From Minisyncoccota bacterium (GTDB lineage Bacteria; Patescibacteriota; Minisyncoccia; Phycocordibacterales; UBA6065): 43,617 nt of DNA. Shown here in pieces: positions 13,240 to 31,283 of this stretch. The position numbers were made by a program, and so were the translations under genes. The stretch is taken from NCBI GenBank assembly GCA_041661645.1, contig JBAZUA010000001.1:1-43617 (forward strand), given 5' to 3'. Under the pieces are notes generated by a model. It did not search any database and had not been told where the DNA came from. It worked only from the letters and a program-made list of their open reading frames with translations. Each line of letters begins with the position of its first letter. Within the stretch, counting starts at the first letter, position 1.

Positions 13240-13268
13240 TTGACAACGATTGATTAATCATGTATAAA
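13240..13268 (+). promoter_or_regulatory. Sigma70 promoter of the MFS leader
   Basis: TTGACA-N17-TATAAA. Confidence 0.8.
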
Positions 13269-13274: not shown

Positions 13275-13427
13275 ATGTCCACAAGGCATTCACAGCTTAA
13301 TAAGTTCGTATGGGCGATCTCACATCGCCCTCTTTGCGTTGCGCGCACCATCGGAGTCATGTTCGATCACGCCCACGCCACAACAACTTTTTTCAGCCGA
13401 GATGCTTTTACTCTTCGCACCAGTTAA
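13275..13427 (+). CDS. Leaderless leader peptide L1 (50 aa; contains PLCVA)
   Basis: MSTRHSQLNKFVWAISHRPLCVARTIGVMFDHAHATTTFFSRDAFTLRTS. The ATG is 6 nt after the -10 and a terminator follows. Confidence 0.65.
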   Translation: MSTRHSQLNKFVWAISHRPLCVARTIGVMFDHAHATTTFFSRDAFTLRTS

Positions 13428-13456
13428 AATCCCACTCTCAATTTCATTGTAGAAAT

Positions 13457-13488
13457 ATCCCGGCTGAATGAAGTCGGGATTTTCTTTT
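13457..13488 (+). terminator. Attenuator terminator upstream of the MFS gene
   Basis: ATCCCGGCT-GAATGA-AGTCGGGAT-TTTCTTTT. Confidence 0.8.
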
Positions 13489-13554
13489 GGATCTCTCGCC
13501 CTCATTCGGCACCGGAACAGTTCTTTACAACATCAAACACAACAAGGATTAGCA

Positions 13555-14742
13555 ATGATCAACAAAATCATCCGTCAGTATCTCGTTCTCACGGGCATGT
13601 TCAACCTGGCCGTATCCCTCAGTCTTGGCACCTATGTCAGCTTCCTTATCAGCAGGGGACTTAACCTGTTCGAGGTGAATCTCGTGAATGTCGCGTATTT
13701 CGTGGCGATGTTCTTCTTCGAGATTCCCACGGGGGCATTCGCGGACACGTTCGGGAGGAAGAATTCGTATGTCATATCATGCGTGCTTTTCTCCCTCGGC
13801 ATGATCGTCTATTCGCAGTCTTACACCATGGCGGGCTTCATCGGTGCCGAGATTCTTGCCGGCATCGGCAGGACCTTCGGCAACGGCGCCTATCACGCCT
13901 GGTTCGTGGACATGCTCAAGCACCATGGGTACAAGGGGACCACCGCCCCGGTCTTTCGGAAGGAACAGATGGTCAGGCAGTTCGTCAGTATCCCTGGCGC
14001 CATAGCCGGCGGATACATCGGATCGCTCGACCTCTCGTACCCTTGGCTTGTCGGCGGGTGCATGGGCATTGTCGTGGCGCTGCTCGCATGGTTCATCATG
14101 AAGGAGGACTATTTCGTCAGGCCTCCCCGGATGAGTCTGTCTGCATCGGTACGCGAGATGTTCAGGATGGCGGGTCAGGGCATGCGATTCGCCCGAAAGA
14201 GCAAGGTCGTGCGCCTCGTCGTCGTGATGAACGCCCTCCTTGCCTTCGCCGTCCAGTCCCCAAACATGCAATGGCAGCCCTTCTTCAGGTCGGCCGTTGG
14301 GAACGTGGCCTGGTTCGGATATATATGGGCTGGGATAGCCACCTGCATCTTCATCGGCATTCATGCGTCAGCGTGGGTGAGGACAAGGATCAGGGACGAG
14401 CCTCTTGCCATGGCCGTATCCATGGTCGCGGCAGGAATCATGCTCGTCTGCGCCGTGTTGAGCAGGGAATATGTGATCATGGCGATCGCCCTATTCCTGG
14501 CACATGAGATACCGAGAGGTGCGTATGCGCCCATAAAGGACGCATATCTGAACGATCACACCGATCAGAGGGAGCGCGCCACGGTGATATCCTGCCAGTC
14601 CGTGTTTGGTCATTTGGCCTGCCTGTCAGGGCTCCTGCTTGGCGGACTGGCTGCCGAGATGGTATCGATATCTGCCGCATGGCTCATATCGGGGGCGATT
14701 CTCGTGGCGGCACCCTTCATTATCATCAGGGTGATGAGGTGA
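13555..14742 (+). CDS. MFS transporter
   Basis: About 12 hydrophobic helices and FEIPTGAFADTFGRK (motif A). Start taken at MINKII. Confidence 0.93.
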   Translation: MINKIIRQYLVLTGMFNLAVSLSLGTYVSFLISRGLNLFEVNLVNVAYFVAMFFFEIPTGAFADTFGRKNSYVISCVLFSLGMIVYSQSYTMAGFIGAEILAGIGRTFGNGAYHAWFVDMLKHHGYKGTTAPVFRKEQMVRQFVSIPGAIAGGYIGSLDLSYPWLVGGCMGIVVALLAWFIMKEDYFVRPPRMSLSASVREMFRMAGQGMRFARKSKVVRLVVVMNALLAFAVQSPNMQWQPFFRSAVGNVAWFGYIWAGIATCIFIGIHASAWVRTRIRDEPLAMAVSMVAAGIMLVCAVLSREYVIMAIALFLAHEIPRGAYAPIKDAYLNDHTDQRERATVISCQSVFGHLACLSGLLLGGLAAEMVSISAAWLISGAILVAAPFIIIRVMR

Positions 14743-14751
14743 GGTTTATTC

Positions 14752-14787
14752 AAGGCGCTTTCTGATCGTATCCGGAGGCGCCTTTTT
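14752..14787 (+). terminator. Intrinsic terminator
   Basis: AAGGCGC...GCGCCTT plus a T-run. Confidence 0.65.
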
Positions 14788-14894
14788 GTTTGGCTGAATA
14801 TGATATCCTTTAAAGCAGAGCAGAACCTTGAGCGCAACACGTGAGCCCTCATTGATCCGTCTGTTCGTAAACCCAATGAAAGGAGGTGGTTGAG

Positions 14895-15071
14895 ATGGGT
14901 AAGAAGCATGTCAATGCGGGCAAGGGCGCCAGCTTCCAGAGCTCTCAGGGCCGAAGGAATTCCGGCTCACCGAGCTCGAATGGCGGCGGACGCGAGCGCA
15001 ACGTCGGACACACAAAATCCTCCGAACACTCACGCGTCGCCAAGGGCCTCAGAAGCTTCTTCAAGCGATAA
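14895..15071 (+). CDS. Small basic, Gly/Ser-rich protein (58 aa)
   Basis: Strong SD GAAAGGAGGTG upstream of the ATG; K/R-rich. Confidence 0.7.
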   Translation: MGKKHVNAGKGASFQSSQGRRNSGSPSSNGGGRERNVGHTKSSEHSRVAKGLRSFFKR

Positions 15072-15143
15072 CGCTTACCGCGATGGCCTCGTCTCATAAG
15101 GACTTGGCCATTTTTATATTAAAAATGTTGTAGACTTATAGAT

Positions 15144-16271
15144 ATGCAAGGGAACCCAATCAAAATACACTTGCCAGACTCGAAAAGTGAGGTAATCGTT
15201 ACCGTGGCTTTCGCCTACGGCTTCCTGAGCGAACCGACGACATCGTTTGGCATGGGGCACCTGGCAGAGCACTGTCTCTGCGCCCAGATAAAAGAGAATC
15301 TCGGACTCAAGGACGCCTGGGGCCACATAGACGATAAAAGCCTCGTCATCAACATGCTTCTTGATAAGGTGGCTTACGCAAAACTCCTCGAGGACGGCAT
15401 CGTGAAGACCTTGTCCGAAATCGCCCAATCCGTGAGCGCGAAGATCTTTGACGTTGAAAAGCTCAGGATTCGCTCGGAGGTCGAGGAAAGATACAATTCG
15501 ACCTTTTCGCTTTTCTCAGAATATGTCAAAGGTAGACTCATCAAAAGCCCACGAAGGCTCGCGAGGGCGAGAGTGTGGCAGCTTAAAACCTTTCGTAAGG
15601 CAAGCCTGAGTGGTCTCAAAAAGACCTTCGACTTTATATTTTCTGCGGAACACCTTCTGTTCGTCGGCAGTTCAGGGACCGGCAAGTCTTCCTGCAATCC
15701 AGACTTAACGCCTTTTAGCCGTCTAGAAATCGCCTTCTCTAAGAAAAAACTTTTCAGGCTCCCGGCGCAAAAAGACAAGGGTGCGTTCATCATCGCCTTT
15801 CACACGCCCGGCCTCGAAGCGTCGCTCGAAAGGGGCCTCGTGACAGGATTCGTCTCGGGCGAGATATACGAGGCGTTCAGGGAGGTGGCAAGGTCTTATG
15901 GCGCGTATGATCCGTCGTATGAAATTCGCATGGAGAGAGAATATGGGATAGTGTGGTTCGGTCTTTACTCGCACGCGAAAATCCCTCGCGACATTGAGGT
16001 GTCTTTTTTCAGGGTTGTGAATTCTATTATCGGTGGAAATGATCTGGGCTCAAAGCTTAAAAAGTATAAGAGGGAAAAGTCGGCGGAGATGAAGTCCGAT
16101 TGGGTAGGTAGGGAAGAGCGGCAGGATTGGATCGTGGAGGACTACCTGGAGGGTCGGGACGCTTCTAGCCTGAAGACGGCTCTTGCGGCAATCGATGGCA
16201 TTACGGCCACAAAGGCGAGAAAGGCGGCGAGGGAGATTTTTACGCCAAAGGCTGCTTATATCTTTAGATAA
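15144..16271 (+). CDS. M16 (insulinase)-family peptidase-like protein
   Basis: Inverted zinc motif GMGHLAEH (HxxEH). Confidence 0.75.
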   Translation: MQGNPIKIHLPDSKSEVIVTVAFAYGFLSEPTTSFGMGHLAEHCLCAQIKENLGLKDAWGHIDDKSLVINMLLDKVAYAKLLEDGIVKTLSEIAQSVSAKIFDVEKLRIRSEVEERYNSTFSLFSEYVKGRLIKSPRRLARARVWQLKTFRKASLSGLKKTFDFIFSAEHLLFVGSSGTGKSSCNPDLTPFSRLEIAFSKKKLFRLPAQKDKGAFIIAFHTPGLEASLERGLVTGFVSGEIYEAFREVARSYGAYDPSYEIRMEREYGIVWFGLYSHAKIPRDIEVSFFRVVNSIIGGNDLGSKLKKYKREKSAEMKSDWVGREERQDWIVEDYLEGRDASSLKTALAAIDGITATKARKAAREIFTPKAAYIFR

Positions 16272-16327
16272 CCTTCAGCGAACGTGGTCGACGACGGGTC
16301 GATAAGGTCTGTGTCAGCCTTATCTGC

Positions 16328-17626
16328 TTACAGATAACCCCACTTTTTCAACTTCGCCTCACCCTCGTTCACGAAGTGGCTGCCGATGTCGTTGCGATAC
16401 ATCTTTTTTGGGATCACCACCTTCTCGACGATGGCATAGGCCTTCTGCTGGGCTTCCTTGACCGATGCGGCATGCGAGGTCACGTACATGACGTATCCCT
16501 GCCTGTCAGATATGTAGTATTGGTTTTCCTCGAACGATGAGAGCGAGACCTCCTCGAGATGAACATGCTCGAACTCCTCTGGGGTGAAATCCTTGAAATG
16601 TATCCTTATTCCGTAATTGTCGTGCTCCTTTGATTTTTTGGAGAACGGGAACGGGGGCACCGCAAGGAGGACGACGATACCGTAGCCCTTCTTCCACTTG
16701 ATATCGTACTGCTTGCCGGAAGCCACGGCATACAGGAACTCGCCCCAGGGCGACTGATGCAGCTCGGTCTGAAGGTGTATTATCGGCGTGCCGAAGCGGG
16801 CCGTTGCCTCGAGCGGATAGGCGCCCGTCTCGTTGACGATACAGTTAATCTCGAAATCGCCTCTAAAATCTGCCTTGATAAGCGCCGGCTTCATCTTTTC
16901 AAGGGTTTCTAGGTAGAGTTTGTTTTTCTCGTCGGTGCTGTACCAGGCGAGCGTGCCCATCTCGCTTGTCGTTGGACCGATATCGCCCGAAAGAAACCTG
17001 ACATGCTCGATGTTAAATTCGAGCGGCCCAACCCACTCTTTTCCGTTGAAATACCTGCCGACACCTATCTCGACCCCGTGCACGCGTTTGTGGAGGGTGA
17101 CGGGCTTCCTGTTCATCGGGCTGTGAAGCAGGTAGTTTCGGAGAAGCGACAAGACATCCTCGCCGTTTTTCATCTCGCCGACGTAGCTGTAGAACTTGCC
17201 GTTGCCGTTGTCGGTTTTTATGACCCACTCATCAGGATTCTCTTTGACGAACATGGCCGCATCGTCGATGTTCTCGAAGTCCCTGAGCTCAACGGTTTTC
17301 ATCCCGCATTCCTTGAACATTTTTTGACCATACTCCCGATCAATCTCGAGCTTCTCGCCCATTTCAGATCCGCCGAAAACCGTGTAGCCCTGCTTTCTCA
17401 TTCGATCCTGTATCGCGCCGTACCCAGTGTCGTCAAAGATGATGAGGCCGCTTTTGCCCACCCAGGAGAGCTCGGCTCGCCAATTCGTGACTTGGGGGAC
17501 CATGTTATCGAGATTGCACCGACTTTTCTTGTTCTCGACGAATAGTTTGACAGAGTGACCCTCTTTTATGAGGAGACGCGCGAGATTGCCCGCGTTCAAA
17601 TCTTTTGATATAAATAGGATGTTCAC
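16328..17626 (-). CDS. Stand-alone PurD-like (phosphoribosylamine-glycine ligase fold) ATP-grasp protein
   Basis: VFGGSE...LEIDREYG, VIKTD, GPTTSEMG and EATARFG motifs. It is divergent from canonical PurD and no pur genes lie nearby. Confidence 0.8.
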   Translation of the reverse strand: MNILFISKDLNAGNLARLLIKEGHSVKLFVENKKSRCNLDNMVPQVTNWRAELSWVGKSGLIIFDDTGYGAIQDRMRKQGYTVFGGSEMGEKLEIDREYGQKMFKECGMKTVELRDFENIDDAAMFVKENPDEWVIKTDNGNGKFYSYVGEMKNGEDVLSLLRNYLLHSPMNRKPVTLHKRVHGVEIGVGRYFNGKEWVGPLEFNIEHVRFLSGDIGPTTSEMGTLAWYSTDEKNKLYLETLEKMKPALIKADFRGDFEINCIVNETGAYPLEATARFGTPIIHLQTELHQSPWGEFLYAVASGKQYDIKWKKGYGIVVLLAVPPFPFSKKSKEHDNYGIRIHFKDFTPEEFEHVHLEEVSLSSFEENQYYISDRQGYVMYVTSHAASVKEAQQKAYAIVEKVVIPKKMYRNDIGSHFVNEGEAKLKKWGYL

Positions 17627-17680
17627 GGAGTATGCGGTGGTTACGCTGGTCGGTATTAAGTACTCACATTCTAAGCATTT

Positions 17681-17872
17681 ATGGACAAAAAATCAAAGGC
17701 CCTGTCTTGGGTAATCGCTCTCGCGGTCATCTCCTCGATCGGCATCACATTCTACAAGACGGTCGTCGTGAAGGACTTCGTGATGGTGGGTGCCGATGAG
17801 GGAGGGGAATCCCTGCCTGACAATGCCTCGGTGGAATTTTCCAGCACGACCGAAGAGGTCCCCGCGGAATAA
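17681..17872 (+). CDS. Small single-TM protein with an acidic tail
   Basis: Hydrophobic residues 8-25 followed by an acidic C-terminus. Confidence 0.65.
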   Translation: MDKKSKALSWVIALAVISSIGITFYKTVVVKDFVMVGADEGGESLPDNASVEFSSTTEEVPAE

Positions 17873-17878
17873 CCAGCC

Positions 17879-18265
17879 ATGCTCAACATACACATACGCA
17901 CCATTCCCGATTCCGCCCAGCGCTACAATACCGTCGCCGATTATTATAAAGAAGGCGAGCGTGAAGTTATATCCGTATCGGAGATGGGCGACTGGAGGCA
18001 CGAGATGCTGACTGCCATCCACGAGCTCGTCGAGCTGTCTCTGTGCAGGCATCGGGGCATAACAGACGAGGCCATAGACGCCTATGATCTCGAATTCAAT
18101 AAGGGCAGGGGAGAGGGCGACGCAAGCGAGCCTGGGGATAGGGAGGATGCGCCATATCACAAGGAGCACGCATTCGCCTCGTTTATCGAGAAAGAGCTGG
18201 CGCGGGAGCTTGGCGTCGAATGGGATTCCTATTCTAGGGCTTCCGACAGGCTCAATCTCAGATAA
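17879..18265 (+). CDS. Hypothetical protein with a HELVE (HExxE) motif, putatively metal-binding
   Basis: AIHELVE and EPGD...APYHKEH motifs. Confidence 0.75.
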   Translation: MLNIHIRTIPDSAQRYNTVADYYKEGEREVISVSEMGDWRHEMLTAIHELVELSLCRHRGITDEAIDAYDLEFNKGRGEGDASEPGDREDAPYHKEHAFASFIEKELARELGVEWDSYSRASDRLNLR

Positions 18266-18267
18266 AC

Positions 18268-18297
18268 TTGACTTTTATATACATATCGTGCTATAAT
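18268..18297 (+). promoter_or_regulatory. Sigma70 promoter with extended -10
   Basis: TTGACT-N18-TATAAT preceded by TGn. Confidence 0.8.
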
Positions 18298-18330
18298 ATA
18301 ACAGTACGAGTTCATTGAAAGTAGTTACCC

Positions 18331-18442
18331 GTTGCGACGTTTTAGAGGGACTTGGCCAGGCCGAGCGTCTCTAAAACGTCGCAACATCCAAAAGCATCGA
18401 CGTGTGGCTCGTTCGTACTTGGTTAACGCCAAGGCGAGTCAC
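18331..18442 (+). promoter_or_regulatory. Structured 5' leader of the EamA gene
   Basis: 17-bp perfect inverted repeat 18331-18347/18369-18385 and a second hairpin 18404-18442. Confidence 0.65.
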
Positions 18443-18462
18443 GAAGAAACAGAAAGGTCCAT

Positions 18463-19350
18463 GTGGAATTCTTCCTGAATCTCCTCCCGCCGATGCTCTG
18501 GGCAGCGTCGGTTCTCACAGACAAGATACTGGTGAAAGGGGAAGGCAAGGACTCGAAGCCGGCGGCGCTCATGGCGATCTCCGGACTCTTCAATCTCGTC
18601 TTCGGCATCGTGGTCCTCGGGCCGATGATGCTGTGGCATGGTCGGGGCGTGGAGCTGTCGGTTATGCTTCCGCTCATGGCGAACGGCATCACCTACATCA
18701 CGGCAATGATCCTGTTCCTCACGGCCTTAAACCTCGAGGAAGCGTCTCGCGTCGACCCCTGGTTCCAGACCATACCGGCATTCGGCATCATCCTGGCCTT
18801 CTCCTTCATCGGAGAAAGTCTCGAATGGTATCACGTGACGGCGATAGCGGTTCTGATGGTTGGCGGCTGGGTTCTCAAGTCGAGTGGCAAGGCGAAGGGT
18901 CAGGTGATCGTGCTCATGCTCATCGCCTCGCTCCTCCTCGCCGTCAACGACGTCGTGTTCGCAAAGTTCGGTCGCGAGCTCGATACCGTCCCGGCCATCA
19001 CCTGCGACGTCGCGGGAAAGGCGTTCTGGGGGCTTGTCCTCCTCGTCGGTCCCAAGACCCGTCAGGGCTTCGTCATCGGCATGCGGACCAAGCTCGGCCT
19101 TCAGTCGCTCTCGGAGATGTTCGCGATCGTCGCGGACTTCCTGTTCGACAGGGCAAAGCTGTTCGCGCCCGTGGCGATCGTCCAGGGACTGGCCTGCAGT
19201 CAGCCGATATTCGTCCTCGTCGGGGCGGCGCTTCTCACGAAGTTCCTCCCTCACCTGGTCTCGGAAGAGCAGGGGTCTGCCTTCTGGAAAAAACTGGCCG
19301 GCATCGCCCTCATCGTCATCGGTGGGGCGGCGCTCGGGGTAACTACGTAA
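18463..19350 (+). CDS. EamA/DMT family transporter
   Basis: About 10 TM helices in two repeats; EEASRV...GESL pattern. Confidence 0.85.
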   Translation: MEFFLNLLPPMLWAASVLTDKILVKGEGKDSKPAALMAISGLFNLVFGIVVLGPMMLWHGRGVELSVMLPLMANGITYITAMILFLTALNLEEASRVDPWFQTIPAFGIILAFSFIGESLEWYHVTAIAVLMVGGWVLKSSGKAKGQVIVLMLIASLLLAVNDVVFAKFGRELDTVPAITCDVAGKAFWGLVLLVGPKTRQGFVIGMRTKLGLQSLSEMFAIVADFLFDRAKLFAPVAIVQGLACSQPIFVLVGAALLTKFLPHLVSEEQGSAFWKKLAGIALIVIGGAALGVTT

Positions 19351-19360
19351 ATAAAATCAG

Positions 19361-19395
19361 ACCGCGCACCTGGAAACAGTGTGCGCGGTTTTTCT
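19361..19395 (+). terminator. Intrinsic terminator
   Basis: ACCGCGCAC-CTGGAAACAGT-GTGCGCGGT plus a T-run. Confidence 0.75.
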
Positions 19396-19408
19396 TTTCA
19401 TAAAGCCC

Positions 19409-19948
19409 CTATTGGTTGTTGAGCTTTTTTATTTTCTCCTCCAGATACCACTGGAAATAGCCTTTGTATTTTTCCTGAAGCTTTGGGTTTTTCCAAGCAT
19501 CCTCATCAACAATGCCACGACAATCTTTTGATCCGCAAAGGCATTTCATTGTGAAATACTCTGTGCTTTTTGGGTTTGAGGCGATGATCATCGCATAGTC
19601 ATAGAGAATCTCCTCGCCAGCCTCTATGTCTCGCATGGCTACCATGAAGTTGGATCCCTTAAATCCTGTGTTAGGCTCGCAGCTGTGATTTACATAATGC
19701 TGGGGCATCAAATCCATATCGTTCTCGTTGATAGGGCAGATAGAGAAATTCTCGGATATCTCTATCGGCTTGTCGCAATTGAAGTCATTCAAGTGGTTTT
19801 CATCATCTATATCAAAGATATAGCCACCCATGACGATGAGCGTGTCATCCTTCTTGATCGGCTTCAGCGAGAAGATCCCCTTGCCGTATCTACCCGTGTC
19901 CCTCACCTCGAGAGATGGGTTCATCCACGAATACATTCTATTTTTCAT
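19409..19948 (-). CDS. SET-domain protein-lysine methyltransferase with post-SET
   Basis: GKGIF, NHSCEPN, GEEILYDY and CLCGSKDCRG motifs. Start taken at MKNRMY. Confidence 0.92.
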   Translation of the reverse strand: MKNRMYSWMNPSLEVRDTGRYGKGIFSLKPIKKDDTLIVMGGYIFDIDDENHLNDFNCDKPIEISENFSICPINENDMDLMPQHYVNHSCEPNTGFKGSNFMVAMRDIEAGEEILYDYAMIIASNPKSTEYFTMKCLCGSKDCRGIVDEDAWKNPKLQEKYKGYFQWYLEEKIKKLNNQ

Positions 19949-20009
19949 ATGTATAAAGTCTATCACATATTCTTTGCGAACCTGCAATTGCTCTTGTATA
20001 CTTATATTC

Positions 20010-21674
20010 ATGGATCCATACCTTTGTCTGAATGCTATACCGAATGTTTTTGGAATTTTCGATACGTCAGTCGCCCCGACGCTTCTCTACTATTCATACA
20101 TACCGATAGTCTTTCTCTCGCTCTTCTTTTCAATTTTCCTCTTCGTAAAGAATAGGTCAATACAGACAGGGTCTCTACTTGCCATCGCTGTATCCTTCTC
20201 CCTTTGGATAGTCAATGAGTTAGTCCAGTGGATTGCCGTCGATGCCTGGCTCGTGCATTTCGGCTGGCAGATGTCGGCCTTGTCTCAATTAAGCCTAGTG
20301 TTCTCTATTACCTATTTCGTATACACCTTCCTTTATAACAAGGCGCCAGAATTTTCCCTCAAATTTGTCGGTTTTATAGTCCTGCTTCCTGTCCTCATCC
20401 TGCTTCCTACGGATTTCAATATGACATCCTTTGATTTAATCGAATGTCAGAGTCTGTTTGCTACGAACTTATGGCTATATATATACTATCTTCAGGTTGC
20501 CCTGACTGCCGTCTCAATATTTTTCTGTGTTAAAAAATATCGAGAACCATCAAATCCCGAGGACAAGAAGAAGGCCTTGTATATCCTTATCGGGACTTTT
20601 ATTCTTCTAGGGCTCTTCGTGACGACCAACATCCTGGGCGACGCGACCCTCGTGTACGAGTTCAACCTGGTCGGACCCCTCGGAATGGCGCTCTTTATCG
20701 CCTTCATCTCGTACATGATCGTGAGGTTCAAGGCCTTCGACGTGAAGCTCTTCAGCGCACAGATTCTCGTTGCAACCCTATTTTTCCTCGTATTTGCCAT
20801 TCTCTTCATCAGAAAGATCGAAAACATCAGAATCATCACGATCATCACCCTTGTCCTTACCGCGATATTGGGCACGGTGCTCGTGAGGAGCGTCAGGAAG
20901 GAGGTCGAGGCCCGTGAGCTCATCGAAAAGCAGCGAAACGAGCTCGAAAAGGCGAACGTTCGTCTCAAGGAGCTCGACGTCCAGAAGTCCGAGTTCGTTT
21001 CCTTCGCCACGCATCAGATTCGCAGCCCTCTGGCATCCATGCGCGGATACGCCTCCCTCATACTCGAGGGCGACACCGGTCCCGTGAACGATGCCCTCAG
21101 GAAGGTCGTCGAGACCATACTGACCTCCACCAAGACCCTCTCGTCCGTCGTCGAGGACTACCTCAACATCTCGCGCATCGAGCTCGGCACCATGAAGTAC
21201 GACCTCAGGGAGATCGATTTCAAGGACCTGGTGACGGAGGTCGTGAACGAGCAGAAGCCGAACATCGACGCCAAGGGTCTGACCTTCAGGGTGTCCGTGG
21301 ACGAGCTGGAGAAGTATCCGATCAAGGCCGACCTCGACAAGTTCAAGCAGGTGATCATGAACATCGTCGACAACTCGGTCAAGTACACGCCGAAGGGATC
21401 GCTCGAGGTGTCGCTGTCAAAGGACGCCGTCAAGGGAACCGTCACCTTCAAGGTCTCGGACACCGGCGTGGGCATAGCGCCCGACGTCATGCCAAAGCTC
21501 TTCCGCAAGTTCTCGCGCGCGAACAACGCGAGCGAGGCGAACATTCACGGCACCGGCCTCGGCCTCTACATCGCCAAGGAGATCGTCACCGCCCACGGCG
21601 GCAGGATGTGGGCCGAATCAGCAGGCGAGGGCAAGGGAAGCCAGTTCTATGTGGAGATGAGGGAGGGGAGATAA
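20010..21674 (+). CDS. Membrane sensor histidine kinase (multi-TM sensor + HisKA + HATPase)
   Basis: H-box FATHQIRSPL, N-box NIVDNSVKY and G-boxes DTGVG and GTGLGL. True start taken at MDPYL. Confidence 0.93.
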   Translation: MDPYLCLNAIPNVFGIFDTSVAPTLLYYSYIPIVFLSLFFSIFLFVKNRSIQTGSLLAIAVSFSLWIVNELVQWIAVDAWLVHFGWQMSALSQLSLVFSITYFVYTFLYNKAPEFSLKFVGFIVLLPVLILLPTDFNMTSFDLIECQSLFATNLWLYIYYLQVALTAVSIFFCVKKYREPSNPEDKKKALYILIGTFILLGLFVTTNILGDATLVYEFNLVGPLGMALFIAFISYMIVRFKAFDVKLFSAQILVATLFFLVFAILFIRKIENIRIITIITLVLTAILGTVLVRSVRKEVEARELIEKQRNELEKANVRLKELDVQKSEFVSFATHQIRSPLASMRGYASLILEGDTGPVNDALRKVVETILTSTKTLSSVVEDYLNISRIELGTMKYDLREIDFKDLVTEVVNEQKPNIDAKGLTFRVSVDELEKYPIKADLDKFKQVIMNIVDNSVKYTPKGSLEVSLSKDAVKGTVTFKVSDTGVGIAPDVMPKLFRKFSRANNASEANIHGTGLGLYIAKEIVTAHGGRMWAESAGEGKGSQFYVEMREGR

Positions 21675-21703
21675 GATAACTCAAAGTCTTCAATTACTCG
21701 AAC

Positions 21704-22528: not shown

Positions 22529-23994
22529 TTAATATACTGCTTATCGGCTGTGGATATCATGCCCGCAGAATATACGTTCCGCATCTCATGGAACAGAAGA
22601 ACGCAAGGCTCTCAGCCGTAGTCGACCTTGTTTCCCAAAGGCGAAAAATAGAGGGTTTTCTAAACGAAAAAGCAATTGTGGATATTGATTTTTATTACAC
22701 TGACAACAATCAGATATCTGACGATCTAAATCCTGAAGAAATCAAGAATTTAAATGATTTGGTAACAAAACAAAAGATAGATGCCGTTATTATTTCAACC
22801 GAACCTTTGGCACACTTCAAATATGCAAAATGGGCACTTGGGCACAATCTACACGTCCTCATGGACAAGCCAATCACCACGGAGCGTGACGTATCGACCA
22901 ACAAGGAGAAGGCGAGGAAACTGTACTCAGACTACACTAGTCTAAAAGAGCTCTATCAATCGAAATTAAAGAACAAAAGATTGGCTTTTATTCTTCAAGC
23001 ACAACGGAGACACCATGGTGGATTCTTGAAGACTAGGGATTTAATCCTTGAGGTCGCCAAAAAAACGAATTGTCCGATAACCTCCATTGAGTCATTCCAT
23101 AGTGATGGTCAGTGGAGATTTCCGAAAGAAATAATCGAGCAGACTTATCATCCGTACAATCAAGGATATGGAAAAATGTCCCATTCGGGCTACCACAGTC
23201 TCGATACGGCAGTATGGCTCGCCCAATCATCCATACTCGATCAAAGAAAGGAGTACGACAACTTCGAGCTCTATGCACAAGTCATGCGTCCAATAGATTT
23301 CTTTTCCCAACTAACACCAGAAGACTACGCAAAATTATTTCCTGGGATAGATAAAGGTGATCTGTTTTCAAGCAACCAATTAAAGGAGATGTTGGACGTG
23401 AAGGACACACATGGTGTGACCGGTGAGCTAGATGCCCATGCGCTCATCGCCCTTCGGCACGGAGAACGTACAATTACTAACATAGGCTCTCATGCTGTAC
23501 ACAACGGTTTCAGTCAGAGAAGTTGGATATCGGCAATCGGTCGTGACCTATACAAGGGCAATGGGCGTGTTCGACACGAGTCCTACATAATCGAGCAGGG
23601 TCCGTTTCAGTGTGTAATCGTTAACTCGTTCCAATCTCATGAGATATTCAAAAGCGACATCTCTCCGAATCTGGTGGGCGGGGAGTATCACTATGACATC
23701 CATGTTTTTAGAAACAGTACCCTGTTTCCAGAATATAAGGCTTACGAGCTCATTACGATGAGCGAGATAAATCAGTTGGTTGATCTTAAGTATTCTCGAG
23801 GACACCAAGAAGATGCACGTAGGAACTGTGTCGAGGAATTCATCTTGGCAATCAAGAATCAGACGCCTCCGCACCAACAAACCTCAAACTTTCTCGACCA
23901 TGAATTATCAACACACCTCCTCAGTGCCATATACGAGTCTATCGCTGACAGTGGTCAGTCTAGAGTAGTAAGAAGGAGCATCATAAATACATGA
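22525..23994 (+). CDS. Gfo/Idh/MocA family oxidoreductase
   Basis: IGCGYHA Rossmann motif, IISTEP..H, HVLMDKP and HSGYHSLD. Confidence 0.88.
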   Translation: MINILLIGCGYHARRIYVPHLMEQKNARLSAVVDLVSQRRKIEGFLNEKAIVDIDFYYTDNNQISDDLNPEEIKNLNDLVTKQKIDAVIISTEPLAHFKYAKWALGHNLHVLMDKPITTERDVSTNKEKARKLYSDYTSLKELYQSKLKNKRLAFILQAQRRHHGGFLKTRDLILEVAKKTNCPITSIESFHSDGQWRFPKEIIEQTYHPYNQGYGKMSHSGYHSLDTAVWLAQSSILDQRKEYDNFELYAQVMRPIDFFSQLTPEDYAKLFPGIDKGDLFSSNQLKEMLDVKDTHGVTGELDAHALIALRHGERTITNIGSHAVHNGFSQRSWISAIGRDLYKGNGRVRHESYIIEQGPFQCVIVNSFQSHEIFKSDISPNLVGGEYHYDIHVFRNSTLFPEYKAYELITMSEINQLVDLKYSRGHQEDARRNCVEEFILAIKNQTPPHQQTSNFLDHELSTHLLSAIYESIADSGQSRVVRRSIINT

Positions 23995-24971
23995 AAGAGA
24001 ACTATAAATCAAAGACTAATATTGTTATGACATGTTGGAACGCCCTCGATCACACTAAACTTACGTTACGGAGCATGTTCGATACTGTGCATCATCCGTT
24101 TTTTTTGACAATAGTAGATAACGGTTCCCGTGATGGAACCCAAGAATTCTTAAAAAATCTGGAGATTTCGTCGTGGTGTGAGAAAGTGGTAATGATTACC
24201 AATGAAATAAATAGGGGGATAATTGATGCAAACAACCAGGGTCAAGTGGTATCAAAGCAATATAGTTTAAAATATACATGCATCTGCAACAATGATTTAT
24301 ATTTTCAGGATAACTGGCTTTCGATTCTTGAAAATCACATGGAAAACGATCTCGACCTTGGGATCATTGGTACGCTTCGACCTGCTATTGACGTGGCTCA
24401 TCACATTCGTCATGAATCAAGCAAGGTTGTCGTGGATGGCACACCGAAAGGATATTCCATCACTGAGGAGTTGGAATATTTTCAAGGTCCGCACACTTTT
24501 ACCGAGGCGGCAAAAATGCTAATAGCCAAGAATAAGGGTGGGATCGCCATCTTGAGATGTCCACCAAACGCGGTAGTCACATGCTGCGCATTAGTCCGAA
24601 ATTCGGTATCTGATAAGATCGGCCTTTTCTCAGACACTCTCTTTGAGATGTATGGGAGCGAAGATATAGACTTCTCGTGGAGACTTCAAAAAGCTGGATA
24701 TCACTGTGGTGTTGCTAAAGATGTATACGTTCATCATTTCAGACATCGATCCATCAGCGCCTCAAACCTAGACAGAGAGAAATACCTTAGAGAAAATAAT
24801 ATAAAATTATTCAATAAATGGAAGTGTGACATATTTACTTTTTTGAAAAATGAAGAAAAGAAAGGCGTGGATATACGAAAAAATCTATCCTCAGAAGAGA
24901 ATCACGAATATTTTTTTCTGCGAAGAATACGGGAGAAGATAGATTTTATGATAGAATATCAAAATGAATAA
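23991..24971 (+). CDS. GT2 glycosyltransferase
   Basis: IVDNGSRDGT, CNND and SEDIDFSWR motifs. Confidence 0.9.
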   Translation: MKENYKSKTNIVMTCWNALDHTKLTLRSMFDTVHHPFFLTIVDNGSRDGTQEFLKNLEISSWCEKVVMITNEINRGIIDANNQGQVVSKQYSLKYTCICNNDLYFQDNWLSILENHMENDLDLGIIGTLRPAIDVAHHIRHESSKVVVDGTPKGYSITEELEYFQGPHTFTEAAKMLIAKNKGGIAILRCPPNAVVTCCALVRNSVSDKIGLFSDTLFEMYGSEDIDFSWRLQKAGYHCGVAKDVYVHHFRHRSISASNLDREKYLRENNIKLFNKWKCDIFTFLKNEEKKGVDIRKNLSSEENHEYFFLRRIREKIDFMIEYQNE

Positions 24972-25506
24972 TCTGATCACAGAAAAGGTGGTAATTAATA
25001 ATCCCATCGGTAATTTATACAGGAAAAGGCACGTACTGGTTTTGGTTATCGACAAAAACTCAAACTTTATTCTCGGAAAAAAGAAAGACTTTTACCCGGA
25101 CCACGTCGCCCGTATGTTGGGTGGCGGCATTAAAGAGAATGAGGACCCGAAGATTGCTGCAAAAAGAGAGATTGAGGAGGAACTCCTTGCTAGTATTCCA
25201 ATTGAATCTTTTAGAGAGCTTTGCTCAGTTATAACAAGCGCGGCCACAAGCGAGGGTGATATGGAGATGCAGACTTGGATTTATTCAGTTCGATTACCCG
25301 ATTCGGCAGACATAAAGCCAAGCGACGATATTACTGGGATCCAGATATTTACTCAAAAACAGTACGAAAGCCTCATAAAAGACATAATGGATCTTTCGGG
25401 AGAATTTGTAACTGATAAGTTTTCATTTCTTTGGGCTGATTGGGGCAAAATATACGGTCCGATCCATAAGTATGCCCTCGATAGTTTCAGGAAGATGGGG
25501 AACTAA
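24964..25506 (+). CDS. NUDIX hydrolase
   Basis: GGGIKENEDPKIAAKREIEEE Nudix box. Confidence 0.9.
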   Translation: MNNLITEKVVINNPIGNLYRKRHVLVLVIDKNSNFILGKKKDFYPDHVARMLGGGIKENEDPKIAAKREIEEELLASIPIESFRELCSVITSAATSEGDMEMQTWIYSVRLPDSADIKPSDDITGIQIFTQKQYESLIKDIMDLSGEFVTDKFSFLWADWGKIYGPIHKYALDSFRKMGN

Positions 25507-25510
25507 CCAC

Positions 25511-26131
25511 ATGGAACACGAGAAAGAGTATTCAAAAATTTGTGATGATCTCAAGGGATTGGTTGAAGAGACGGGGGAACCTTTAGAGGGAAATTGTGTG
25601 TATCGGCACCTATCGTTTGATCAGTGGGATGTTCTGCTGAACAAAAGAGTAAATTATCAGAAAGCGGTCAAGGGAAGAAAATTCATATGCGAAATTGGAT
25701 TCAATGCAGGACACAGTGTTCTTGCTATGATTTTGGCGAATCCCAATGCGCATTATGTTCTATTTGACCTTGGAGCTCACTCTTATGCTCGACCCTGCTT
25801 CGATTACTTAAAAAAAATTTTTCCACAGACGACATTAGAGATAGTCTGGGGAGATTCTCGTGAGACACTACCCGCTTATCGGAAAGAACATCCAAGGGTG
25901 ATGTTCGATTTAGTGCATATAGACGGAGGTCATAGAAGCGAGATTTATGTGGCAGATTGGAAAAACTCGCTCGACATCACTCATCCTGGTAGCTTTATTA
26001 TCTTTGATGACACAGATAGTCTTAAAATAAACACTTTTCTTGATGGGGAGATCAAGAAACAAATCGTGGATGAGGCAGCTGGCTTTCTCAAAACATTCGG
26101 TTACGAACATCGCGTCTTGGAAAAGAAATAA
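25511..26131 (+). CDS. Class I SAM-dependent methyltransferase (Methyltransf_24-like)
   Basis: EIGFNAGHS, GDS, DLVHIDGGH and IIFDD motifs. Confidence 0.88.
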   Translation: MEHEKEYSKICDDLKGLVEETGEPLEGNCVYRHLSFDQWDVLLNKRVNYQKAVKGRKFICEIGFNAGHSVLAMILANPNAHYVLFDLGAHSYARPCFDYLKKIFPQTTLEIVWGDSRETLPAYRKEHPRVMFDLVHIDGGHRSEIYVADWKNSLDITHPGSFIIFDDTDSLKINTFLDGEIKKQIVDEAAGFLKTFGYEHRVLEKK

Positions 26132-26141
26132 ATCCCTAAAA

Positions 26142-26972
26142 TTACATAACGTCTCCAATCCCTTCTTCTAGAGCCACTTTTGTTTTCCAATTAAGAAGAT
26201 TTTCACTTTCGGCATTTTTTTGAATGATATGCTTTATGTCCCCCCTCCTCTCGGACACATATTTGATGGGCGCCTTGAATAGGCTGGCGACATAATTCAG
26301 GCTGACATTCCTTCCGGTGCAGAGATCAATGTTTCCCACGACATCGCTATCCATGGCCAGGATGTTTGCTCGCACAATGTCTGAGACGTGCGTGAAATCC
26401 CTGGTTTGCTCTCCGTCTCCTGTTATTTCAATATACCCATTTTCTTTAATAGATTTCTTAATTGAAGCAAAACAATTGGGACCAATACCGTCTTCTCTTT
26501 GTCTCGACCCATAAACATTAGAGTTCCTCAAGCAGATGGTCGAGATACCGTAAAGACTTGTATACACTTTTGAGATTTCTTCCATGGCTATTTTGCTTGC
26601 TTTATACGGAGTGTCAGCCGCATACACGATATTGCTTGAGGTTAAAATCACACGCTTGACGTTATTTTTAAAGGCGGCCTCTAGAACATTTAGAGAACCC
26701 AAAACATTTGTCTCGTAACAAAGAACGGGGTCATCGATGCACCAGACTGTTCGGGGTATAGCAGCCATATGAAAGACGTAGTCAATATCTTTAAAGTGAC
26801 CAAATATACTTTTTAGAGACCTTATATCAGCATCGTAATATGTGGCATCCGGATTCACGTTATTTCCAGAAAGCCCATTGTCTATTACGAATACTTCGAA
26901 ATTTTCTACCAAACTGTCGACGAGATGAGAACCGATAAACCCCTTACCGCCAGTTACTAATACTTTTTTCAT
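26142..26972 (-). CDS. NAD-dependent epimerase/dehydratase (extended SDR)
   Basis: VTGGKGFIGSHL, YKASK (YxxxK), NVYG and GDGEQTRDFTHVSD motifs. Confidence 0.93.
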   Translation of the reverse strand: MKKVLVTGGKGFIGSHLVDSLVENFEVFVIDNGLSGNNVNPDATYYDADIRSLKSIFGHFKDIDYVFHMAAIPRTVWCIDDPVLCYETNVLGSLNVLEAAFKNNVKRVILTSSNIVYAADTPYKASKIAMEEISKVYTSLYGISTICLRNSNVYGSRQREDGIGPNCFASIKKSIKENGYIEITGDGEQTRDFTHVSDIVRANILAMDSDVVGNIDLCTGRNVSLNYVASLFKAPIKYVSERRGDIKHIIQKNAESENLLNWKTKVALEEGIGDVM

Positions 26973-27078
26973 ATGGATATGACTATAACATTTTTTAGAA
27001 AATACCATTATTTGACAAAATATGTATTTAATGATATTACTGTTTTAGAATTTAACCCAAACCAAAAAGGAGTTATCT

Positions 27079-27624
27079 ATGTTCATAGTATTAGAAGGTA
27101 TAGACGGTAGTGGTAAATCTAGCCTGGCCCCGATGATTGCGGCAAAATGTAACGGCACCACTTATGCTACACCTCCTGAGAAATACAGAAGGTTACGTAA
27201 GCAAATAGATACGGATTCGAGTCCTCAAAAGCATTACGAATTTTATCGTGACGCGGTGACAGAGGCATCTTCGGAGATTAGCAAACTGCTATCTTCGGGC
27301 GAAACGGTGGTATGTGATAGATACTGGTTTAGCACACTAGTCTACCACAGGGCAGGGAAGATGGTCCTAGATGGATCAGACTTTTCTCACCTTACTCAGC
27401 CTGATTTAACAGTTCTGCTTTTAGTGGGGCCGGAGGAGCAGGTCCGCCGTTATCGGAAGCGTGGAGTGGAAGGCGGCAACAATGTCGACGGTTTCCAGGT
27501 AGAGATTAACAATCTGTACCGGACAGCTCTCATTGAATCAAAATTGCCATTCATTGTCATAGACACAGATCATTATTCCCTAGAACAAATTACAGACATG
27601 ATTGTTGCCGCTCTGCCGAAATAA
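27079..27624 (+). CDS. Thymidylate-kinase-fold nucleotide kinase, CMPK2-like
   Basis: EGIDGSGKS P-loop, TPP..Y..LRK, DRYWFST and PDLTVLL. Confidence 0.85.
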   Translation: MFIVLEGIDGSGKSSLAPMIAAKCNGTTYATPPEKYRRLRKQIDTDSSPQKHYEFYRDAVTEASSEISKLLSSGETVVCDRYWFSTLVYHRAGKMVLDGSDFSHLTQPDLTVLLLVGPEEQVRRYRKRGVEGGNNVDGFQVEINNLYRTALIESKLPFIVIDTDHYSLEQITDMIVAALPK

Positions 27625-27626
27625 TC

Positions 27627-27656
27627 ACAGTCCGATTCCCGAATCGGACTGTTTTT
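27627..27656 (+). terminator. Intrinsic terminator
   Basis: ACAGTCCGATTC-CC-GAATCGGACTGT plus a T-run. Confidence 0.75.
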
Positions 27657-27706
27657 AATTAGCAGAAATATCATTTGCTAACAAGATTGGATGACGGTAC
27701 CATAAC

Positions 27707-28270
27707 ATGAACAAGATGAAAATCATCCTCGGCTCTACAAACAATCGAAAGATTGAGGTCGTCAAAAAGGCCCTCAAGACCGTCACGGGCAATTTTCCGG
27801 AAGTATTCGGCTTCAAGGCCGATTCCAAGGTGCCAGAAACCCCGTACGATAAACAGACCTTCGATGGGGCTCGAAATCGGGCGGTGCAGGCTCGCGACGA
27901 GGCTGGTGATGCTGATATGTATATTGGCCTCGAAAGCGGCCTGATCGAGCGATACGGTAATGTATACGAAGAGGCCTGGTGCTATATTCTGACAAAGGAC
28001 GGCAGAGAGTATTCTGGCTATTCGAGCGGCCTGCGCCTGCCAGACTATGTCCTGAGCGAGATGAAGCGCCTCAACAAGGAGCACTGCGATGTCATGACCA
28101 TACTCGAGGAAAGACACGGCAATCTGCCGAACGACACTTGGGGAAGTTATTCGTCTGGTATGATAACCCGCGAGAATAGCCTCGAGGAGGCCCTTCGCAA
28201 CGTCCTGATCCAGATATACGCGCCGGAGCAAAGCTTTTACAAGCAGAAACAAACTTCACATGAACTATAA
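27707..28270 (+). CDS. yjjX: Inosine/xanthosine triphosphatase (DUF84/YjjX-like)
   Basis: GSTNNRK, SKVPETP, GARNRA and IGLESGL motifs. Confidence 0.85.
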   Translation: MNKMKIILGSTNNRKIEVVKKALKTVTGNFPEVFGFKADSKVPETPYDKQTFDGARNRAVQARDEAGDADMYIGLESGLIERYGNVYEEAWCYILTKDGREYSGYSSGLRLPDYVLSEMKRLNKEHCDVMTILEERHGNLPNDTWGSYSSGMITRENSLEEALRNVLIQIYAPEQSFYKQKQTSHEL

Positions 28271-28613
28271 TCTTGATTTAAACGACAGGCCTTTCAGGGC
28301 GATAAAAGAAGGGACGAAAAAGATCGAAGGGAGAACCCGTACGAGCCAGAATACCTTCTCCTACGATGCATTAAAGGTAGGGGATACTTTGACGTTTTTA
28401 AACAACGTGACGGGGGAGATATTGGTTGTGGACATTCTAGGAGTTCGCCACTATCTAGACACTCGGTCCATGCTTGAAGCAGAGGGCACGCGAAACGTCC
28501 TCTCAAGCGGCGGAACCATCGAGCAGGGTATAGAAAGCTATAATTCTTTCTTTGAATACAAAGAGGGCATTGTTCGATACGGCATATATGCAATTGAGAT
28601 AAGGGTGAAATAA
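28260..28613 (+). CDS. ASCH domain protein
   Basis: FRAIKEGTKKIEGR and VGDTLTF motifs. Confidence 0.88.
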   Translation: MNYNLDLNDRPFRAIKEGTKKIEGRTRTSQNTFSYDALKVGDTLTFLNNVTGEILVVDILGVRHYLDTRSMLEAEGTRNVLSSGGTIEQGIESYNSFFEYKEGIVRYGIYAIEIRVK

Positions 28614-28623
28614 AGAGCAAAAC

Positions 28624-28650
28624 AAAAAGCCCGACCATTCCTGGTCGGGC
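28624..28650 (-). terminator. Terminator between the convergent ASCH and GNAT genes
   Basis: A-run followed by GCCCGACCA-TTCC-TGGTCGGGC. Confidence 0.7.
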
Positions 28651-28658
28651 CTTGTCCA

Positions 28659-29264
28659 TCACTTTGCCTTCCGCCTCTTCTTGCCCTTGGCGAGATAAGC
28701 CTTCCATATCGGGGGCCAATCTTCCTTGAACAGGGCGAGGTTAACGACATCAGGATACCCGCCGTCCCGAAGGACGTGTTTTGCGAGCACACCCTCGACC
28801 TTGTATCCGCATTTCTTGCTGTAGGCAAGGCTGCGGGCGTTAAAGGCGATGACCTGGGAACAGAGCTTTCGGAGACCGAGGTTGCTGAAGGCCCAGTTCA
28901 CGAGCTGCATCTTGGCATCGGTTCCGTAACCCTTGTCCCAATACCTCTTGTCGCCGATCATTGCACCGGACACGGCCACACCATCCGTCCATTTGATGTT
29001 GTGGAAGCCGATGTTTCCGATGTGGACCCCATCCTTGGTCTCTATGGCCAAGACGACGTCGCTCTTTGACCCGGTCGAATGCGACTCGAGCCACTTCCTC
29101 TCGGCTTGCATGGTCAAAGGCCACAGTCCGGATAGATATCGCGACACCTCTGGATCATTGATCCATCGCGTGCAGCGTTCCAGGTCTGACTCCTCCAAAG
29201 GGCGGAGATTCACCATGTTTCCACGGAGAAAGACCACCCGATTACCGTCGTTTGTGTTTTTCAT
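28659..29264 (-). CDS. GNAT N-acetyltransferase, RimJ/RimL family
   Basis: LRPLEESDL, HIGNIGF, YWDKGYGT and N.RSLAYSKKCGYKVEG motifs. Confidence 0.92.
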   Translation of the reverse strand: MKNTNDGNRVVFLRGNMVNLRPLEESDLERCTRWINDPEVSRYLSGLWPLTMQAERKWLESHSTGSKSDVVLAIETKDGVHIGNIGFHNIKWTDGVAVSGAMIGDKRYWDKGYGTDAKMQLVNWAFSNLGLRKLCSQVIAFNARSLAYSKKCGYKVEGVLAKHVLRDGGYPDVVNLALFKEDWPPIWKAYLAKGKKRRKAK

Positions 29265-29361
29265 ATACGTTATGCGTTAGCTGTTAATGAACATGCTCTG
29301 CGGGCAAGGAACCTATACGATAGATAATATGAATATAGTCGCTCACGCTCCTTATTCATAT

Positions 29362-29389
29362 AAAATCCCGGCTTGCGCAGAGCCGGGAT
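29362..29389 (-). terminator. Attenuator terminator upstream of the GNAT gene
   Basis: Minus strand ATCCCGGCT-CTGCGCA-AGCCGGGAT-TTT. Confidence 0.75.
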
Positions 29390-29416
29390 GGGTCCATATC
29401 TATCGGGAGGAGAAGA

Positions 29417-29533
29417 TTATGCACTCATGTCGGCCACACACAAAGGGAGGGAATATCCGCGAACGGCAAAATGGCCGTTTGGCGCGGTGATATTCATAAC
29501 CTTCGTATATGACTGGCAGTTGTTGTGCTTCAT
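29417..29533 (-). CDS. Leader peptide L3 (38 aa; contains PLCVA)
   Basis: MKHNNCQSYTKVMNITAPNGHFAVRGYSLPLCVADMSA, lying between a promoter and a terminator. Confidence 0.65.
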   Translation of the reverse strand: MKHNNCQSYTKVMNITAPNGHFAVRGYSLPLCVADMSA

Positions 29534-29543
29534 AGCGCTATTA

Positions 29544-31275: not shown

Positions 31276-31283
31276 TCCAACTA

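Follow-up and report, generated by a model that had tools for sequence, protein, structure and literature searches.

Nascent-peptide arrest leaders such as SecM, TnaC, MifM and SpeFL carry a stall-site motif that is conserved in amino acids. In bmrB-bmrCD of Bacillus subtilis (PMC4191407) and in mef(E)/mel (PMC4335068), a short leader open reading frame (ORF) is combined with alternative antiterminator and terminator structures, the terminator stands before an efflux or resistance gene, and induction follows when translation of the leader is slowed. The attenuators of amino-acid operons such as trp, his, thr and pheL (PMC1183508, PMC3082878) operate by a 1:2, 2:3 and 3:4 pairing logic, have a hairpin for pausing, and keep the leader stop codon at a constant spacing from the terminator. 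The traits of the latter two kinds of leader have their likeness, induction on slowed leader translation being a prediction here, at two loci of the stretch of DNA analyzed in this work, 43.6 kb of a contig from a Minisyncoccota bacterium (JBAZUA010000001.1; 51.5% G+C) that we call the window: L1, before a gene for an MFS transporter, and L3, before a gene for a GNAT N-acetyltransferase.

Bacteria of the candidate phyla radiation (CPR/Patescibacteria) cannot be grown alone, and almost nothing is known of their gene regulation. We propose, with a probability of roughly 0.6, that both loci belong to a single family of Parcubacteria transcription attenuators that act in cis and depend on the ribosome, a proposal built on sequence comparison and predicted RNA folding. 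If correct, this would be among the first cis-regulatory mechanisms proposed for the CPR, one in which transcription of a transporter gene and an acetyltransferase gene is coupled to ribosome progress, and it would suggest that these organisms have resistance or detoxification genes inducible by translation stress and that they use leaderless translation. A leader-ORF attenuator family in Parcubacteria, with MFS and GNAT genes under like control, is apparently undescribed: a literature search returned no relevant report of leader peptides or attenuation for Patescibacteria, and no such element was apparent in the available parts of the literature joining the terms candidate phyla radiation and leaderless.

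Two leader ORFs and their relatives

L1 lies on the forward strand (+) of the window and consists of the following parts, in which regions 1 and 2 are the two ORF segments for which alternative pairing is proposed and PLCVA is a pentapeptide encoded in both leaders.

13240..13268, +, L1 promoter: TTGACA, 17-nucleotide (nt) spacer, TATAAA; 6 nt from the -10 box to the ATG
13275..13427, +, L1 leader ORF: 50 codons plus stop, MSTRHSQLNKFVWAISHRPLCVARTIGVMFDHAHATTTFFSRDAFTLRTS; predicted to be leaderless
13275..13289, +, 5'-terminal hairpin AUGUC-CACAA-GGCAU with the start codon inside (RNAalifold, alignment A6)
13283..13309, +, region 1: candidate anti-antiterminator, which would pair with region 2 as long as the terminator is still untranscribed (pre-terminator minimum free energy (MFE) folds)
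13312..13343, +, mid-ORF hairpin GGGCGAU-CUCAC-AUCGCCC with the U-rich tail UCUUUGCGUU: candidate RNA polymerase pause site
13392..13410, +, region 2: antiterminator strand UUCAGCCGAGAUGCUUUUA (codons for FSRDAF), predicted to pair with the terminator 5' arm
13457..13483, +, intrinsic terminator: ATCCCGGCT-GAATGA-AGTCGGGAT plus T-run
13518..13531, +, post-terminator motif CAGTTCTTTACAAC, conserved in MFS and GNAT leaders
13555..14742, +, MFS transporter of 395 aa, the putative regulated gene; weakly TetA(P)/Tet(40)-like, of the drug:H+ antiporter type

L3 lies on the reverse strand (-) and has a close relative, L146, to which one of its parts is compared.

29544..29571, -, L3 promoter: TTGACA, 16-nt spacer, TATGGT; 10 nt from the -10 box to the ATG
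29417..29533, -, L3 leader ORF: 38 codons plus stop, MKHNNCQSYTKVMNITAPNGHFAVRGYSLPLCVADMSA; conserved start at 29533
29500..29513, -, region 1: GUCAUAUACGAAGG, codons 7-12; predicted 14-bp helix with the PLCVA-coding strand
29451..29495, -, nested mid-ORF hairpin with compensatory changes relative to L146
29422..29447, -, region 2: CCCUUUGUGUGUGGC, which contains the PLCVA codons (29446-29432) and is predicted to pair with region 1
29362..29389, -, intrinsic terminator: ATCCCGGCT-CTGCGCA-AGCCGGGAT plus T-run
29280..29294, -, post-terminator motif ATGTTCATTAACAGC
28659..29264, -, GNAT (Acetyltransf_3) N-acetyltransferase of 201 aa, the putative regulated gene

The family comprises 17 members recovered as DNA or as peptide (14 loci and three peptides), of which 12 leaders were analyzed in full, and a family hidden Markov model finds exactly two copies in the window. 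Leaders before MFS genes are, besides L1, those of L003, L004, L020, L006 (Taylorbacteria GCA_016215405.1), L016, L018 (GCA_036170235.1) and L145; every retrieved MFS orthologue (53-78% identity) carries a recognizably related leader, and the flanking genes differ. GNAT leaders were found at L021, L022 and L144, where the orthologues are 61-67% identical, and at L146 and L147. Profile searches with the leader peptides returned further called small ORFs (P0242-P0247), gene callers having independently called such leader ORFs in other assemblies, and the L3 ORF is itself called as a 38-aa gene. The closest named relatives of the L1 MFS gene belong to Candidatus Taylorbacteria and other Parcubacteria, and the nearest solved relatives of the GNAT protein are SpeG spermidine acetyltransferases, PA1377 and AAC(6'). 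A scan of genome contigs with CAGCCGAGATGC..ATCCCGGCTG gave only the known Taylorbacteria contig and eight chance matches in high-GC genomes, so the exact blocks are narrowly distributed. Rfam 15 yielded no match at gathering thresholds and, in permissive scans, only terminator-like noise (E >= 0.046); no tRNA genes were found.

The architecture of the two loci recurs throughout the family. All 12 leaders have a -35 box, a 16-17 nt spacer, a -10 box and an ATG 6-10 nt past the -10 box (the L1 layout, with its 17-nt spacer and 6-8 nt to the ATG, is found again in L003, L004, L020, L006, L016, L018 and L145), a geometry that leaves no room for a Shine-Dalgarno sequence and from which the ORF is predicted to be leaderless or nearly so. 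The ATG frame runs without a stop over 38-53 codons in each of them, the other two frames holding 39 stops in total, and the ORF ends 28-40 nt before the CCGGCU core of the terminator in 12 of 12 cases. These intrinsic terminators, with 7-12 pairs, a T-run and energies of -12 to -20 kcal/mol, stand between the ORF and a co-oriented MFS or GNAT gene directly downstream, whose start lies 58-101 nt beyond the terminator. Under composition shuffling the probability of an open frame is 0.05-0.22 per sequence, and for the four most divergent groups alone the values multiply to ~1e-4. Changes in length keep the frame as well: the L1 ORF is not interrupted in any orthologous leader and its indels are in frame, several in-frame indels distinguish L016 and L018, and the spacings of conserved blocks vary by multiples of three, the distance from the ATG to TTCAGCCGAG being 117, 114, 114, 117 and 117 nt in the L1 clade. 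An alternative-frame ORF at 13310..13471, which ends in the terminator loop, was discarded as not conserved, its ATG being missing from L003 and L004.

Substitutions within the maintained frame bear little mark of the encoded peptide. They are spread evenly over the three codon positions in the L1 clade (9,6,5; 11,6,11; 6,8,9; 15,16,18), and only the comparison of L016 with L018 displays a mild third-position excess (9,7,17). L3 and L146 differ at 18 positions, all within nt 12-82, and in the nested hairpin many of these changes compensate each other (CGCG:CGCG to CCUC:GAGG; GAAUAUC:GAUAUUC to GGAG:CUCC) while altering residues radically (R to E, YS to LP, MN to KE). From nt 87 to 173 the same two leaders show 0 substitutions over 87 nt against 74-88% identity of the flanking genes, so that leader blocks are much more conserved than genes. 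Similarly, CCCTCTTT(G/T)CG is nucleotide-invariant across five orthologous leaders, with identities of the MFS proteins as low as 59%. Judged from these alignments, the reading frame is maintained, and the conserved thing is the RNA, not the peptide; the even codon-position spread and the radical compensatory changes therefore suggest that the ORF serves as a track for the ribosome, its product not being needed.

Constraint of this kind also speaks for a leader that acts through RNA alone, as a riboswitch or as a protein- or tRNA-binding attenuator, with the ORF incidental. Blocks are invariant at all codon positions where the genes are ~77% identical, the hairpin changes are compensatory, amino-acid conservation is poor, an extra conserved motif follows the terminator, and in the L1 clade a 5' hairpin hides the AUG. 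However, the conserved blocks are wholly different between subfamilies, which have only the architecture and the ORF in common, and this is unlike an aptamer core; moreover, the ORF is open in every lineage, its indels are in frame, and the promoter-ATG and stop-terminator geometry is fixed. These points and the lack of an Rfam match make an RNA-only leader unlikely.

The peptides of L1 and L3 had been described as unrelated, in a sequence-only reading of the window. Their common architecture, terminator and post-terminator motif give them the look of diverged homologues instead. An nhmmer model built from MFS leaders only matches the GNAT leader L022 over its full length (E = 0.007) and matches L3 at the terminator only (E = 0.017), which by itself does not prove homology of L3 to the L1 type. 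After the stop codon follows a pyrimidine-rich stretch containing CUC (AUCUCAA or CUCUCAA in L022 and most MFS leaders, CUCCUC in the remaining GNAT leaders), and the post-terminator motif YAGTTCNTTNACA lies 20-45 nt before the regulated start codon in nearly all members, MFS and GNAT alike (L003, L004, L020, L006, L016, L018, L145, L021, L144 and L146 also have it). This motif is partly palindromic in some members (GAACAGTTC, GAGCATGCTC) and might act as an operator for a protein, in translation or as a partner in pairing. On the strength of these comparisons L1 and L3 are probably diverged members of one leader family, the alternative being convergence on a common design.

The terminators ATCCCGGCT..AGYCGGGATTTT behind both ORFs, which the same reading had noted as a shared stem, take the form ATCCCGGCT-loop-AGYCGGGAT plus T-run (13457-13483 and 29389-29362(-)), and the window has no third site of this form. 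The stem alone is not distinctive, as it has at least 120 exact matches in public metagenomes, nearly all of them other terminators of unrelated organisms. Its use as a family marker was rejected, almost all of the metagenome matches listed being unrelated and only L055 looking related. L055 is a fragment at a metagenome contig end (5-104; nhmmer E = 4e-8) with a family-like antiterminator and terminator, TTCAACCGAGATG...ATCCCGGCTGG...; behind it lies a 213-aa ORF (160-801) that matches nothing in Pfam or NCBIfam and may represent a third type of regulated gene.

L146 (2501-2900; JGI 3300081410, a 276-kb contig) and L147 retain an intact L3-type promoter, ORF (PLCVADMSA) and terminator before a GNAT remnant that meets a stop after 14 codons and is followed by a convergent gene. 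The L146 promoter reads TTGACA-16-TATCGT-10-ATG, and the gene upstream differs from that of L3. The L3 terminator as the mere end of an upstream His_Phos gene was rejected on this ground, since in L146 another gene, in divergent orientation, precedes this promoter and leader; there being no His_Phos gene upstream of L146, the leader has its own promoter. Promoter, ORF and terminator would also suit an independent small gene, for a small protein or a small RNA, with the downstream gene served by a promoter of its own: the unit is complete, its terminator looks efficient, it persists beside the degraded GNAT gene of L146 and L147, and the terminator-to-gene gap of 60-100 nt holds a conserved motif. 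Despite differing neighborhoods, the unit nevertheless always stands immediately before an MFS or GNAT orthologue and in its orientation, no consistent candidate for a second promoter between terminator and gene was found across the leaders, and the peptide is poorly conserved. The conserved antiterminator, in addition, is sensible only if read-through matters. We therefore regard an independent small gene as very unlikely.

Alternative pairings and a putative mechanism

An antiterminator helix, in which the 3' part of the ORF pairs with the terminator 5' arm, is predicted in 12 of 12 leaders at the same place, -42 to -3 nt from the stop. Its energy is -13 to -18 kcal/mol in 11 of the 12, with z values down to -3.6 (RNAduplex). 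The antiterminator strand reads UUCAGCCGAGAU... in most MFS leaders and has the core (A/G)GCCGA everywhere except in the L021 clade (CCGGCC); the MFS-clade terminator is held constant by its pairing with this conserved strand. For region 2 of L1 against the terminator arm RNAduplex gives -16.4 kcal/mol (z = -2.5), and the helix appears in the RNAalifold consensus of five sequences and in the MFE fold of the full leader. In L3, region 2 overlaps the predicted antiterminator strand UGGCCGACAUGAGUG.

Folds of the RNA that precedes the terminator place region 2 in a different partnership, with codons ~4-12 in 11 of 12 leaders. For the L1 clade 85-92% of the cells of region 1:region 2 are paired across five sequences. 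Throughout the family the ORF contains a central hairpin with a U-rich tract behind it, which is likely to be a polymerase pause site; the L1 hairpin at 13312-13330 together with TCTTTGCGTT was flagged by a terminator scan. The 5'-terminal hairpin of L1 is preserved in L020 and L006 by the compensatory change of UC:GG to CA:UG (AUGCA...UGCAU), and enclosure of the AUG by this hairpin (13275-13289) is odd for a leaderless start.

These pairings suggest the following mechanism. A sigma-70-type promoter would start the transcript at the AUG or a few nucleotides before it, and the ORF of 38-53 codons would cross region 1 (codons ~4-12), the mid-ORF pause hairpin and region 2, with the pause hairpin and its U-rich tail likely synchronizing ribosome and polymerase. 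Region 2 would have two possible partners, region 1 and the 5' arm of the terminator, which lies ~30 nt past the stop. Were the ribosome to reach the stop, or never to load, region 2 would be covered or held by region 1, the terminator would form, and the MFS or GNAT gene would be off. Were it to lag anywhere in the first two thirds of the ORF, the terminator 5' arm would be taken up by region 2, and polymerase would read on into the gene. Impaired translation elongation is probably what is sensed, and a ribosome-targeting antibiotic and a polyamine-type ligand are candidates. A polyamine is considered because the GNAT protein is SpeG-like and the combination of MFS transporter and acetyltransferase recalls Blt/BltD, an efflux and acetyltransferase pair of B. 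subtilis. An amino-acid-specific attenuator, for which the Thr run of L016 and L018 and the Cys codons were considered, was rejected, as there is no family-wide codon bias and the Thr codons coincide with the pairing strand.

Several observations weigh against a ribosome-dependent attenuator family. The transcription start and the translation of the ORF are deduced from consensus spacing only, and no regulatory codons or stall motif are common to the family. The pairs of region 1 with region 2 are compatible in the five L1-clade sequences and near-invariant, and neither their covariation nor their RNAduplex z is significant. The antiterminator of L3 is weak (-11.1 kcal/mol, z = -0.2). The full-length MFE fold of the L1 clade already favors the antiterminator, which leaves the default state in doubt. 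In the L1 clade, too, a conserved 5' hairpin of 5 bp encloses the AUG and might impede leaderless initiation. The intact L146 leader before a degraded GNAT gene could hint at a role that is independent of the downstream gene. Finally, the sample of the family is small, with its 14 loci and three peptides.

At 11156-12550(-) the window encodes a 464-aa double-ATPase ABC protein (NCBIfam 'ribosomal protection-like ABC-F family protein', 398 bits against a cut-off of 380), which lies ~1 kb from L1 with an NYN-domain gene (12629-13156) between them; the 78-nt spacer upstream of this ABC-F-like gene is without a leader of the attenuator family. Toxin-antitoxin-like genes and Fic/RhuM genes (UPF0150/HicB-like, HicA, Fic) cluster by the L3 region (30337-32475 in the window, 1929-2373 in L146). 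A histidyl-tRNA synthetase gene stands beside the leaders or a few kilobases away (L006 4286-5581, L144 1089-2342, L146 1-332, window ~35618-36931), which may be mere synteny.

The PLCVA pentapeptide in both leaders

The sequence-only reading had centered on PLCVA, which it took to be a ligand- or drug-dependent nascent-peptide arrest motif of two unrelated leaders that coordinates a detoxification regulon. Its account of the sites was accurate. PLCVA is encoded at 13329-13343(+) as CCT CTT TGC GTT GCG, inside the 50-aa ORF 13275..13427, and at 29446-29432(-) as CCT TTG TGT GTG GCC, inside the ORF 29417..29548, with a synonymous difference at four of the five codons, and six-frame translation of the window contains the pentapeptide at these two places only. 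TTGACA promoters (13240-13268; 29571-29544(-)) precede both short ORFs, each of which has an internal hairpin (that of L1, at 13312-13330, abuts PLCVA, and PLCVA forms the 3' arm of a long hairpin in L3), and the genes downstream are those of the MFS transporter and of the Acetyltransf_3 protein.

How unusual the match is can be gauged by shuffling. A pentapeptide shared in any sense frame of the two leaders arose in 375 of 20000 shuffles (1.9%), and a local peptide alignment equal to the PLCVA match in 2.6% of peptide shuffles. The match is only weakly unusual, and these chance figures are weak evidence because it was picked post hoc among several leaders and features.

Conservation of PLCVA as an arrest motif was not borne out by the orthologous leaders, which read PLCAA, PLCVW, PLFVA, PLFAM, LLPAI and ILCSR. 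At the L1 position L003 has PLCAA, L004 PLCVW, L020 PLFVA and L006 PLFAM. The MFS leaders L016, L018, L145 and P0244 have no comparable motif there and show ILCSR, which lacks Pro, where L3 has PLCVA. Among GNAT leaders L021, L144, P0245 and P0246 read LLPAI(VRA), and L022 has nothing resembling the pentapeptide. Elsewhere PLCVA is retained only in the near-identical L146 and L147 (PLCVADMSA), inside the 87-nt stretch of zero substitutions. Nor does the codon difference between L1 and L3 speak for selection on the peptide, for within clades there is no synonymous variation and C/F and V/A replacements are tolerated; this combination of invariant codons with replaced residues places the constraint on the nucleotides.

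The two copies also occupy unlike places in the predicted structures. In L1 the PLCVA codons (nt 55-69 of the leader) make up the end of the mid-ORF stem together with its U-rich tail and precede the antiterminator strand, whereas in L3 they (nt 88-102) overlap the predicted antiterminator strand. An equivalent stall site in both leaders is disfavored by these folds, in which a ribosome held on PLCVA would free the antiterminator of L1 and cover that of L3, with opposite outcomes. In family-wide alignments the two copies never share columns; MAFFT places the L3 blocks differently between runs and aligns the two pentapeptides only when few sequences are included. The alignments suggest that L-C-V-A-D-M-S of L3 likely corresponds to L-C-S-R-G-M-T of L016 and L018 and to F-F-S-R-D-A-F of L1, and that the PLCVA of L1 likely corresponds to the G-x-F-A(V/D) segment of other leaders. 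This mapping draws on an ungapped 31-residue alignment of L3 with L016 (p = 0.006), on the near-identity of AACGGCCAUUUUGCCGUU (L3) to ACCGGCGUUUUUGCCGAU (L018) and on the family alignment.

Arrest at PLCVA has some points in its favor. The exact pentapeptide occurs in both ORFs by different codons, with a shuffle probability of ~2-3%, and a loose P-[LA]-[CFI]-[VA] recurs as RPLC/FV/A in the five L1-clade leaders, as LPLCV in L3 and L146 and as LPAIV in the L021 clade; a stall there in L1 would free the antiterminator strand, and the downstream genes are plausible detoxifiers. Against this, the motif is not conserved in orthologous leaders and is missing from L016, L018, L145, P0244 and L022, the copies are never co-aligned family-wide, and the clade codons are without synonymous variation. 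The L3 codons, furthermore, lie in the 14-bp helix and overlap the antiterminator, so that a stall would favor termination, unlike in L1, and the variable parts of the peptides are without peptide-level purifying selection. We judge PLCVA-mediated arrest to be highly improbable, and the identity of the two pentapeptides is most likely a coincidence, a by-product of two different RNA constraints. The case calls for caution, in that an exact pentapeptide encoded by different codons can stem from two different RNA-structure constraints and does not speak for peptide selection.

A broader form of the idea would have sensory leader peptides stall the ribosome from within its tunnel, jointly with a small molecule (a ribosome-targeting antibiotic or a polyamine), through P-[LA]-[CFI]-[VA] or through the conserved HSKLNK, FSRDAF or G-x-F-A blocks. 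We give it little credence; if true, it would amount to a ligand-dependent arrest-peptide regulon that is new, confined to CPR bacteria and reliant on leaderless initiation. Of the regulon that had been proposed, one part survives: like leaders recur before MFS and GNAT orthologues, which makes a common ribosome-dependent control, and hence a two-gene regulon of MFS and GNAT, plausible, but this regulon is most likely not coordinated by PLCVA.

Comparison with described leader systems

The resemblance of the proposed attenuators to known leaders is one of design. In arrest leaders such as ErmBL and ErmCL (PMC8274638) a short upstream ORF likewise lets the state of translation control the downstream gene, but those leaders have an amino-acid-conserved motif at the stall site, a property that PLCVA does not share. 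The mycobacterial polycysteine 'ribulon' (bioRxiv 10.1101/834739) likewise comprises, in the available part of that report, leaderless sensory short ORFs before several operons and a collective ribosome-mediated response; as described there, it acts on access to the ribosome-binding site and depends on Cys tracts, whereas the leaders here have 0-2 Cys codons each and their output is an intrinsic terminator.

Compared with the amino-acid operon attenuators, whose pairing logic they would follow, the Parcubacteria leaders have no family-wide run of regulatory codons, the Thr-rich start of L016 and L018 being a pairing strand; the genes that they precede encode a transporter and an acetyltransferase and are not biosynthetic, and the ORF covers region 2 as well. 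From bmrB-bmrCD and mef(E)/mel they differ in having no sequence relationship to either and in their CPR/Parcubacteria host, and also in the ORF itself, which is apparently leaderless, without a Shine-Dalgarno sequence, and spans both region 1 and the antiterminator strand.

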